64,000 nt of DNA from assembly GCA_965279375.1 (NCBI GenBank), contig OZ257156.1:4320001-4384000 (forward strand). The letters are read 5' to 3'. The translations under genes and the position numbers were made by a program. Numbering within the stretch: the first letter of the stretch is position 1; every line of letters starts with the position of its first letter. The DNA is from Gemmatimonas sp. (GTDB lineage: Bacteria; Gemmatimonadota; Gemmatimonadetes; Gemmatimonadales; Gemmatimonadaceae). The notes beneath the pieces are model-generated. The model saw only the letters and a program-made list of their open reading frames with translations. It made no database searches and was not told the DNA's origin. Positions 20,347 to 29,673 of this stretch are shown here, piece after piece.

Positions 20347-21186
20347 ATGAGCCCCACCGACGTGCTACTGCATCCCACACCCCCGCTCCCCGCCACCGCG
20401 CTGCAGGTCGATCTCGAGATGGTATCGACGGCAACAACGCCGCCGGCGGAAGCGGAAGCGGAACCCTCAGCGCATCCGCAGCAGGCGGAGAAGGACGCCG
20501 AGGCGAAGCGTCTCGCTGACGCCACCCGCACCGCCGCCGTGCTGGATGCGGCGGCCGTGTTGCTGGCCGAGCGCCCGCGCCGTGCGTCGCTGCGCGAGCT
20601 CGCCGACGAAGCCCTGATGATCGACGCGATTCTCGAAGCCGCTGAGGGCGATCTCACCCCGGAGCTCGAAGCGCGTCTCGACGCGCTGACCGAGGACCTC
20701 ACCCTCAAGGCGGACGGCATCGGCGACTGGCGCGAGACCCTGCAGGCCGAAGTGAATCGCTTCGCTCTGGAGAAGAACCGGTTCAAGGCCGAGACCGATC
20801 GCCTCGCCGCGATCGAGAAGAGCGCCCAGGCGCGCCTCGCCCGCTTCGACGAGCGCACGAAGCAGACGATGCAGCGCATGGGCCGCCTGAAGCTCGAGGG
20901 CGACGTCTGGACCATCACGGTGCAGAGCAATCCGCCGAAACTGATCGTGGACAACGCGGACGCCGTGCCGGCGAGCTACGTGATCACCGAGACCGTGAAG
21001 TCGGTCGATACCGCGGCGCTGAAGGAGGAGTTGATCGCGCGTAAAAAGGCCGACGAAGCGCTCGAGAAGGTCCTCAAGAAGGCCGCGACCGACGAAGAGC
21101 GAGAGGCGATCCGCGCTGCGCAGCCCGCACGGGCCGCGATCGATGGGGCCCATCTCGAAGTCGGCACCACGCTGCGAGCGCGATAA
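20347..21186 (+). CDS. Siphovirus Gp157-family protein
   Basis: LTLKADGI...AETDRLAAIEKS...WTITVQSNPPKLIVDNADAVPASY...VDTAALKEEL...IDGAHLEVGTTLRAR. Confidence 0.85.
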   Translation: MSPTDVLLHPTPPLPATALQVDLEMVSTATTPPAEAEAEPSAHPQQAEKDAEAKRLADATRTAAVLDAAAVLLAERPRRASLRELADEALMIDAILEAAEGDLTPELEARLDALTEDLTLKADGIGDWRETLQAEVNRFALEKNRFKAETDRLAAIEKSAQARLARFDERTKQTMQRMGRLKLEGDVWTITVQSNPPKLIVDNADAVPASYVITETVKSVDTAALKEELIARKKADEALEKVLKKAATDEEREAIRAAQPARAAIDGAHLEVGTTLRAR

Positions 21187-21191
21187 GCGTC

Positions 21192-21572
21192 GCGCGCATG
21201 GCGCCGGGTGTCGGACTGCGTAAGCACCGAACGGCTGATCGCCGTGGCCCACCCGGTTGTCATGCGCGCACCGTGCTGCGCTAGGTCATGCGTATGCTTC
21301 GCCCGTAGTGTGCCGGGTTGAAGGGCGCCCCTGACTTGTAAGGTCTTGATGCCGACTCCGGCGGCAACTGAGAGGCCTCGAGGCGCAGCACGGAGCGCAG
21401 GCTGAGCAGTCTGAGCCACGGTGTAACGCGTGACGCGAGCGACCGCGACGGTGCAACTCCTTAGCGAACACTCACGGATAGACGGGGATGAACGATCTGT
21501 TCAGCCAGCAGTCAGATAGGCTACGCGACGGCCGCGAAAGGAAGCGTCGAAAAGCTGGCAGGAAGTCGCTCG
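21192..21572 (+). ncRNA. Candidate large structured non-coding RNA of unknown family
   Basis: Three nested multi-branch domains with long-range stems; G-U pairs and a GNRA loop favour the + strand; no credible ORF. Confidence 0.6.
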
Positions 21573-21596
21573 GCAAACGTCATGCGTTGCATCGGC

Positions 21597-22262
21597 TCAT
21601 GGTCGTGGGGCGAGTTGCGCGAGGAGCAGCTGCCTGATCGCTTCGCGGTCGCTTGGTGGGACACGCCAGTCGCGATGATACTGTTTTCCGGTGAATCGAA
21701 TCACCGTGCGCTTGCTGTGTGCGATGTCGCGCAGCGCATCGAGGTACGGGGTGGCGTCCACATCCCACCACTCCCAGATGCCGCCGGCCGCATTGTCGCG
21801 ATCCACCGCATCGGCTCCGTACGACTCCGGCGTCCAGTCGTAGTAGCCGCTGTCAGTCTTCACCGCGTAGTTCCGGATGAAGAGCCAGTCGTCCGCCACG
21901 TAGGTGACCTGCAGTCGCATCACGAGGCGCTTCCCGGTGTCGATCAAGTACGGCTTCACCGCCGTGCGACTGTTGACGAACTTCGGCGAATTCGGGTGCG
22001 TGTACGTGGTCTGGCCGGTGACGGAATCGATCGTCTTGCGCAGCGCCTTGAGGGCGACCCGCTCCTCACGAAACGCGGCGGTATCTGCGGCCGGCGTGGT
22101 GTCGGTCAAGACGGGCAGCCTCGAGGTGTCGGCAGCCGCGCTGCGCGCCGGCGCAGCGTCAGAGCATTTCCCGATGATCAACAGCCCAATAAACGCAGCG
22201 ATGAGACCGCCGCAGCCCAGCGGAAGACAGCCCACGTCGACGCCATTTGCAATCTTTACCAC
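21597..22262 (-). CDS. Membrane-anchored periplasmic protein (moron; superinfection-exclusion candidate)
   Basis: N-terminal TM GCGGLIAAFIGLLII; globular C-terminal domain (YVADDWLFI...IRFTGKQY); opposite strand to the lytic genes. Confidence 0.7.
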   Translation of the reverse strand: MVKIANGVDVGCLPLGCGGLIAAFIGLLIIGKCSDAAPARSAAADTSRLPVLTDTTPAADTAAFREERVALKALRKTIDSVTGQTTYTHPNSPKFVNSRTAVKPYLIDTGKRLVMRLQVTYVADDWLFIRNYAVKTDSGYYDWTPESYGADAVDRDNAAGGIWEWWDVDATPYLDALRDIAHSKRTVIRFTGKQYHRDWRVPPSDREAIRQLLLAQLAPRP

Positions 22263-29601: not shown

Positions 29602-29673
29602 AGCCACAGATCGGGATTGAACCGATGACCGCCCGATTACGAATCGGGTGCTCTACCGCTGAGCTACTGTGGC
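29602..29673 (-). tRNA. tRNA-Thr(CGT); probable integration site
   Basis: Cloverleaf; anticodon arm CCCGA-TTCGTAA-TCGGG; no encoded CCA. Confidence 0.95.

Follow-up and report, generated by a model that had tools for sequence, protein, structure and literature searches.

Phages carry structured RNAs whose functions are mostly unknown, and the locus studied here raises the question of whether the gap between two convergent prophage genes holds another such RNA, how many units it comprises and what it might do. It lies in a 64,000-nt stretch of a Gemmatimonas sp. genome (the window, to which plain coordinates refer). A sequence-only reading had proposed a single ornate RNA of ~380 nt at 21192-21572, belonging to no recognizable family. 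We found good support for a non-coding, strand-asymmetric structured element in the prophage without an Rfam match; the single ornate RNA is not supported, as the sole homologue spans domain 3 alone, and the element is probably more than one unit (Table 1).

Results

Genomic context of the element

The element resides in a ~75-kb prophage (G000:C1:4274283-4349632 in the host genome), the right end of which falls within the window, at 29632. The prophage ends are formed by a 35-bp att repeat in tRNA-Thr(CGT), and nearly all prophage genes lie on a single strand. The Gp157 gene immediately upstream is the last of a plus-strand block; its start at 20347 was set, by reading the sequence, from its ribosome-binding site, and its PHROG label is Mu Gam-like end protection. 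It represents a long-form Gp157 subfamily of 240 to 300 aa (P0014-P0038 and window 20347-21186) with acidic N-terminal and variable C-terminal extensions. The convergent gene has 10 relatives, all hypothetical. A RadC/JAB gene lies upstream of the element, and AAA_24, HNH, SSB, exonuclease and integrase genes lie downstream. Scanning the window with Rfam at gathering scores returned seven tRNAs and nothing else, the host tmRNA being located elsewhere, and neither a sigma-70-like promoter nor a U-tract terminator was found flanking the element.

Table 1. Coordinates of the element, its parts and the adjoining genes
Feature	Position	Strand	Evidence or remarks
8-nt complement of domain 2 loop	20328..20335	+	just 5' of Gp157 ribosome-binding site
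Long-form Siphovirus Gp157 gene	20347..21186	+	Pfam PF05565, E 2.9e-20; phrog_253
Domain 1	21192..21269	+	12+7 bp basal helix, two hairpins (one GUAA loop)
Domain 2	21271..21393	+	12-bp basal helix, two branched arms, loops UAGUGUGC and ACUCCGG
Domain 3, separable ~190-nt module	21412..21599	+	BLAST homologue at E 1.7e-8; covariance model R2
Domain 3 basal stem, 5' arm (6+16+8 bp)	21412..21443	+	pairs with 21565-21599; pairs kept in homologue
Hairpin with cap taken to be T-loop-like, GG-UGCAA-CU-CC	21444..21466	+	fold and comparison with homologue
Near-invariant core GCGAACACUCAYGGAUAGACGGGGAU	21464..21489	+	25/26 identical with L235
Variable branched region	21490..21556	+	GCCAGC/GCUGGC helix, AGUC/GGCU hairpin, GAAA-capped hairpin
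GGCAG and purine linker, then basal-stem 3' arm	21557..21599	+	ends in stop codon of convergent gene
Convergent 221-aa gene, no known family	21597..22262	-	no Pfam or PHROG match

The intergenic stretch is structured on the plus strand

The plus strand of 21187-21600 folds at -204.8 kcal/mol (z -4.57), an energy attained by none of 100 dinucleotide shuffles, while the minus strand is unexceptional (z -0.18; 43 of 100 shuffles as good) and holds 3 G-U pairs among its confident pairs against 10 on the plus strand. Both the folded structure and the plus-strand bias that the sequence-only reading had put forward were thereby confirmed. Among 383 GC-matched 414-nt windows of the same genome, the energy was as low in 3, confident pairs were as many in 7 and the ensemble diversity was as low in 3; eighteen 200-nt control windows across 17-26 kb ranged from z +2.0 to -3.0. 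Two other 414-nt windows of the genome (G000:C1 near 1025264 and 898089) fold equally well, with many confident pairs.

The five long helices named beforehand (21192-200/21261-69, 21204-10/21250-56, 21271-81/21383-93, 21436-43/21565-72 and 21504-09/21554-59) pair fully at those positions, with mean pair probabilities of 0.96-1.00. Other details required revision. The structure itself stands, but its end lies at 21599 instead of 21572, and the interval 21192-21572 alone reaches only z -2.6 (20 shuffles). GGCCT does pair with an AGGTC, which is, however, the second one (21341), the first pairing with 21332-37. The proposed TGAAC/GTTCA helix falls outside the minimum-energy fold, where 21476-82/21496-502 is preferred (p 0.62), and neither of these two helices is kept in the homologue described below. 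Three copies of the 8-mer GTCATGCG lie in the element (window 21259, 21285 and 21579), where there are also near-complements at 21195 and 21427, and that strand of the prophage has no further copy; a pattern as strong was found in 153 of 5000 random windows.

Folded separately on the plus strand, domains 1, 2 and 3 gave z -3.2, -5.4 and -4.7, respectively (40 shuffles each). Domain 2 is clearly asymmetric (z -2.1 on the minus strand), whereas domain 1 is equally stable on the minus strand (z -3.9). Since no homologue of domain 1 or 2 was found in any search made, folding energy is what supports them, and they may be either a lineage-specific extension or separate RNAs. The complement of a domain 2 loop that had been claimed in the Gp157 leader, CACACTAC, is indeed present there (Table 1). 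This word has 11 copies on the plus strand of 5.3 Mb and one in window 1-29700, a rarity that makes the match not trivially chance, with the caveat that many loop words are possible and that a partner for this loop also exists within domain 3.

Domain 3 has one independent homologue

BLAST of 21187-21600 against 401 genomes of the family yielded five genomes at E<=1e-4, namely, the genome itself, two with chance matches of 24-27 nt, and G588 and G648, matched at E 2e-8 over 21420-21489. The latter two belong to another genus, among whose 22 genomes they are the sole carriers, and because they share the same integrase-bearing island (99.9% identical over 10.8 kb) they were counted as one homologue, L235:1196-1387 (= L236), the only independent one of domain 3. 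Such identity between two species over at least 10.8 kb (L237-L239; G588:C52, G648:C92) suggests recent transfer or mis-binning; the shared island adjoins a lantibiotic dehydratase/transporter cluster and a Schlafen/AlbA gene, and also encodes DUF5131, an SNF2 helicase, a Cas4-like nuclease and a tyrosine integrase.

A covariance model built from the window's domain 3 alone (R2) aligns the island copy end to end (188 nt, 32.4 bits, E 4.3e-7 in 5.8 kb). The copy starts ~15 nt after the stop codon of a NADAR gene, a distance too short to accommodate domains 1 and 2, and is followed by a co-directional gene. A homologue consisting of domain 3 only, without space for the other two, indicates that domain 3 is a separable module of ~190 nt. 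In the window it is closed by a 16-bp helix (21420-35/21578-93) and a 6-bp helix (21412-17/21594-99), so that its end at 21599 overlaps the stop codon of the convergent gene.

Conservation is concentrated within this frame. Over 21444-21493, 40 of 50 positions are identical between the window and L235, and the alignment score of the core was reached by none of 500 shuffles. The core contains AYGGAU at 21474-79 and, 10 nt further on, a second GGA at 21486-88. The variable interior aligns no better than shuffles (163 of 500 as good), nor does the basal-stem 3' arm (114 of 500), and a weak similarity is seen in the 5' arm (12 of 500). All 21 sequence-anchored pairs are kept, 16 of them identical, 3 changed on one side and 2 on both sides: P2 retains five (three the same, two changed on both sides), P3 three the same, the T-stem two (one changed on one side), the anchored basal pairs 6+2 (six the same, two changed on one side from G-U to Watson-Crick) and GCC/GGC three the same. 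The sequences of the outer basal stem differ between the copies, yet each pairs, and these pairs were not counted because their register is arbitrary. Two independent sequences allow no statistical covariation; the kept pairs are consistent with selection on the fold, and we regard domain 3 as very probably a selected structure.

The island copy folds better on its minus strand (z -5.0) than on its plus strand (z -3.4), its interior being ill-defined, and the core admits alternative pairings that are invariant in both copies. We assigned domain 3 to the plus strand because of the asymmetry seen in the window, the two G-U to Watson-Crick changes, the T-loop-like cap and the direction of the upstream genes. 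In the island, the 5' arm (L235:1196-1262) can pair with the core until the 3' arm is made, a possible co-transcriptional switch; prefixes of the window copy favour a different fold.

Searches for further relatives, transcripts and earlier descriptions

No true homologue was obtained by BLAST of the element against phages and plasmids, or of the L235 copy against phages, plasmids and E. coli genomes, and BLAST against 201 family and 87 genus genomes gave only matches of 23-51 nt, the inspected ones being coding. R2 yielded no accepted homologue in genomes of the family (149), the genus (86) and the class (149); its single match, at E 0.04, was rejected and is not recovered by a further model, R3. 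Three matches of R3 among 95 genomes of the order (E 0.002-0.05), which have neither the T-loop nor the full core, were likewise rejected. Pattern scans returned 48, 2, 0 and 45 loci in IMG/VR, none homologous, 7 in JGI metagenomes, none a true homologue, and 3 in GTDB, all of them the known pemK motif, and these three sets of scans are weak on absence because the patterns predate the recognition of the core and none fits the L235 copy.

Two marine loci, L172 and L174, share the T-loop cap, GGAUAG and a GAAA hairpin with domain 3. Given the pattern, their similarity is marginal (equalled by 32 and 74 of 1000 shuffles), R2 scores only 7.1 bits and R3 lists nothing, so homology was not accepted. 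The two loci (L174:1885-2105 on the plus strand and L172:1905-2145 on the minus strand, both on AT-rich contigs) define an uncatalogued, non-coding structured element of ~230 nt that is a candidate RNA itself, with a T-loop-like hairpin, a possible H-type pseudoknot and a terminator-like end; it is better conserved than the flanking ORFs, shows 2 compensatory pairs between the two copies and has no Rfam match. A self-complementary loop word, UUCUAGAA, occurs in L235:1306-1325 and in the first hairpin of L172/L174, is missing from the window copy and may form a kissing or dimer loop.

The element was not found in three phage records judged to be related to the prophage by shared neighbours (G518, 65% complete; G519 and G706, complete), which makes it accessory. 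In the comparable region of a related phage (L228:13500-15230) there is a gene, which we read as HTH plus metallopeptidase, ending in a bidirectional terminator-like hairpin.

The claim that no known family accounts for the element stood up: around it Rfam gave only three chance matches at E 1-10. Window 21000-21800 had no hit to RNase P, SRP, 6S, group I/II introns, known ribozymes or riboswitches, these families were equally unmatched in L235/L236, no Rfam model matched the island copies at E<=1, and ARAGORN and Rfam called no tRNA or tmRNA on the element. It thus matched none of the families tested by name (RF01731, GOLLD/ROOL/OLE, tRNA/tmRNA, RNase P, etc.).

Four sequencing runs presumed to be RNA each provided one short contig at depth 2-6; as these contigs were selected by the query itself, they carry no evidence on transcription. 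The X4 contig has 10 differences, 5 of which are listed, in 21174-21189, with none listed inside domain 1, a weak observation, and the two differences of X3, both C>A, may be errors. In the portions of the literature covered, no description of the element was found; bulk candidate lists could hold an unnamed entry. The core words were absent from the main text of the RNA papers covered, with four matches in papers unrelated by title, and absent from six supplementary files of PMC10690425.

Discussion

A mobile-element RNA as a candidate protein decoy

On the comparison of its two copies, domain 3 is best described as a new, rare and uncatalogued structured-RNA family of mobile elements, the function of which we infer. 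The reading that we prefer, at a probability of roughly 0.3 as a whole, is that domain 3 would be a stand-alone RNA of ~190 nt, carried by temperate phages and integrative islands, that arises from the 3' portion of the upstream operon transcript, owes its release and protection to a basal stem of ~30 bp, and works in trans by decoying an RNA-binding protein of the host, with CsrA as the leading candidate. Co-transcription and release through the basal stem are suggested by the lack of a flanking promoter or terminator; double-strand-specific processing provides a basis for such release. The basal stem would display the T-loop-like hairpin and the invariant, weakly paired core with its AYGGAU and second GGA. 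Domains 1 and 2, each closed on its own, would precede domain 3 in the same transcript and represent either additional small RNAs or an extension particular to the lineage. A role as decoy for some protein falls a little short of an even chance in our estimate, and CsrA specifically as the target is tentative.

Several observations bear on CsrA. The protein (PF02599) scores above cut-off in all three carrier genomes, although its presence does not single out carriers, as CsrA may be common in the family; in the present genome csrA presumably lies near flagellar-type genes. AYGGAU occurs once per copy against chance expectations of 0.15 and 0.07, and is thus a rare word. In the parts of the sources available, the AYGGAY loops of TwoAYGGAY RNAs are proposed to be bound by CsrA, whose sites are said to tend to occur in pairs (PMC4333381; 10.64898/2026.09.22.753630). 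The core fits the SELEX consensus RUACARGGAUGU, as given in the part of PMC7652899 consulted, only partly: there is no ACA, no purine before GGA and no closing GU. In the predicted fold, one G of the GGA lies in a stem, and AYGGAU does not form a clean terminal loop. Against a decoy, GGA is not enriched (6 occurrences vs 5.9 expected), whereas Csr sponges carry many sites.

Alternative readings

The first alternative is that the whole of 21192-21599 is one ornate RNA of ~410 nt resembling GOLLD or ROOL, which docks domain 2 on domain 3 through loop-linker pairing and perhaps forms RNA-only oligomers, the island copy then being a short form. Hardly any spacer separates the three domains, all of which fold well individually, pseudoknots are possible at 21307-11/21468-72 and 21356-60/21483-87, and the 8-mer present in all three domains would allow strand swaps. 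The homologue, however, retains both putative pseudoknot partners without having domains 1 and 2, so their conservation needs no domain 2. Moreover, pairing the two ends costs 19 kcal/mol, random windows show the triple 8-mer pattern at the frequency given above, and the GOLLD, ROOL and OLE models give no match, which together leave this reading unlikely.

A second possibility keeps the decoy and changes its target: the T-loop hairpin and core could capture, instead of CsrA, a nuclease or sensor of host defence, as a tRNA-elbow-like or other counter-defence decoy. The T-loop-like cap is kept in both copies, which follow genes suggestive of counter-defence, the Gam-like-labelled Gp157 gene (with RadC/JAB upstream) in one case and NADAR in the other, and phage NADARs are reported, in the part of the source consulted, to neutralise DarTG1 (PMC11257639). 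However, there is no acceptor stem, CCA or cloverleaf, ARAGORN and Rfam calling nothing, and the argument from neighbourhood draws on two loci whose neighbours are not the same gene; we consider it rather unlikely.

Both copies begin just behind a plus-strand stop codon, and plain terminator-like hairpins occupy comparable junctions of two related phages, as would suit a cis-acting 3' end device with a role in the stability or processing of the upstream mRNA and in shielding it from the transcript that runs towards it. Yet there is no U-tract, the next gene in the island runs in the same direction, and a 26-nt near-invariant core exceeds the needs of end protection, so that this explanation is about as improbable as that of a defence-directed decoy.

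The very high identity of the core inside variable stems, together with the alternative pairings possible in both copies, might also be expected of a new class of ribozyme or ligand-binding RNA that has the core as its active site; an H-type pseudoknot (GGUG/CACU and CUCC/GGGG) is a further way to draw the core. These pairings are invariant and therefore carry no covariation, no Rfam ribozyme or riboswitch matched, and in the window a location behind a stop codon is not what one would expect of a riboswitch. We give this reading a low probability.

Lower still do we place a small non-autonomous mobile DNA or ssDNA hairpin element of the REP/MITE type that is not a functional RNA. The island copy does fold on both strands, its ends form a near-perfect inverted repeat of 18 bp, and TwoAYGGAY elements have been suggested, in the part of the source available, to spread like mobile elements (10.64898/2026.09.22.753630). 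There is, however, a single copy per genome, the G-U count among confident pairs favours the plus strand, and the termini differ between copies while the interior core is kept; a core kept while the outer stem arms and interior drift is the opposite of a transposon-end element and speaks for a selected RNA. Finally, a small coding gene or chance folding is largely refuted already: a plus-strand ORF of 49 codons does start at ATG 21488 with GGA upstream, but it has no protein relative and the homologue has no ATG at that position, and chance is contradicted by the folding and homology statistics.

Implications

Returning to the decoy reading, its broadest form, a phage and island RNA family that sequesters CsrA or another RNA-binding protein outside Gammaproteobacteria and is here the last of a three-RNA cassette, is doubtful. 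If true, it would mean a sponge RNA encoded by mobile elements that rewires host motility or defence. Binding of CsrA would bear on the proposal that AYGGAY-type RNAs act as Csr sponges outside Gammaproteobacteria and would show that mobile elements carry them; were CsrA not bound, domain 3 would still represent a new family of RNAs, marked by its T-loop-like cap and its invariant core of 26 nt. The family appears to move between unrelated mobile elements.

Comparison with known RNA systems

With the pemK motif (RF02913) and other T-loop-capped RNAs of mobile elements, domain 3 has the cap GGUG(C/A)AA(C/U)UCC in common and nothing else, and no such model matched in the window or L235. MITE and REP elements differ in that domain 3 has neither conserved terminal repeats nor multiple copies.

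The element and the UG27 ncRNA arrays, as described in the part of the source available (10.64898/2026.09.22.753630), are alike in being prophage-borne runs of separately closed hairpin units of 80-190 nt, but the three domains of the element do not share one architecture. No reverse transcriptase (PF00078), the gene that adjoins template ncRNAs of the retron, DRT and UG27 types, was found in the genome or among the scanned island proteins, a search that very divergent ones could escape, which makes a UG27-type role as reverse transcriptase template unlikely.

GOLLD, ROOL and OLE have in common with it a multi-branched non-coding fold in a prophage and a function that is unknown, and the examples given in the portion of the report consulted measure 577-659 nt or more (10.1101/2024.12.08.627333). 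Here the conserved unit is ~190 nt, without an Rfam match, and the tRNAs near the element are the host's integration site, 8 kb away.

The likeness to CsrB/CsrC and RsmX/Y/Z lies in a GGA motif resembling a CsrA site and in a host that encodes CsrA; the known CsrB, CsrC and Rsm sRNAs come from Gammaproteobacteria, according to the part of PMC4333381 consulted. Their hallmark is many GGA motifs in short hairpin loops, whereas domain 3 has only two conserved GGAs, a long closing stem and no terminator.

TwoAYGGAY (RF01731), as far as its published descriptions were available, resembles domain 3 in its long basal stem, AYGGAY word, proposed binding of CsrA/Rsm and variants with extra hairpins. 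Its model gave no match at E<=10 in window 21000-21800 or at E<=1 in L235/L236. Domain 3 differs in having one AYGGAY instead of two displayed in loops and in adding a T-loop-like hairpin, and it is carried as a single copy in mobile elements, whereas TwoAYGGAY, in those descriptions, is present in many chromosomal copies.
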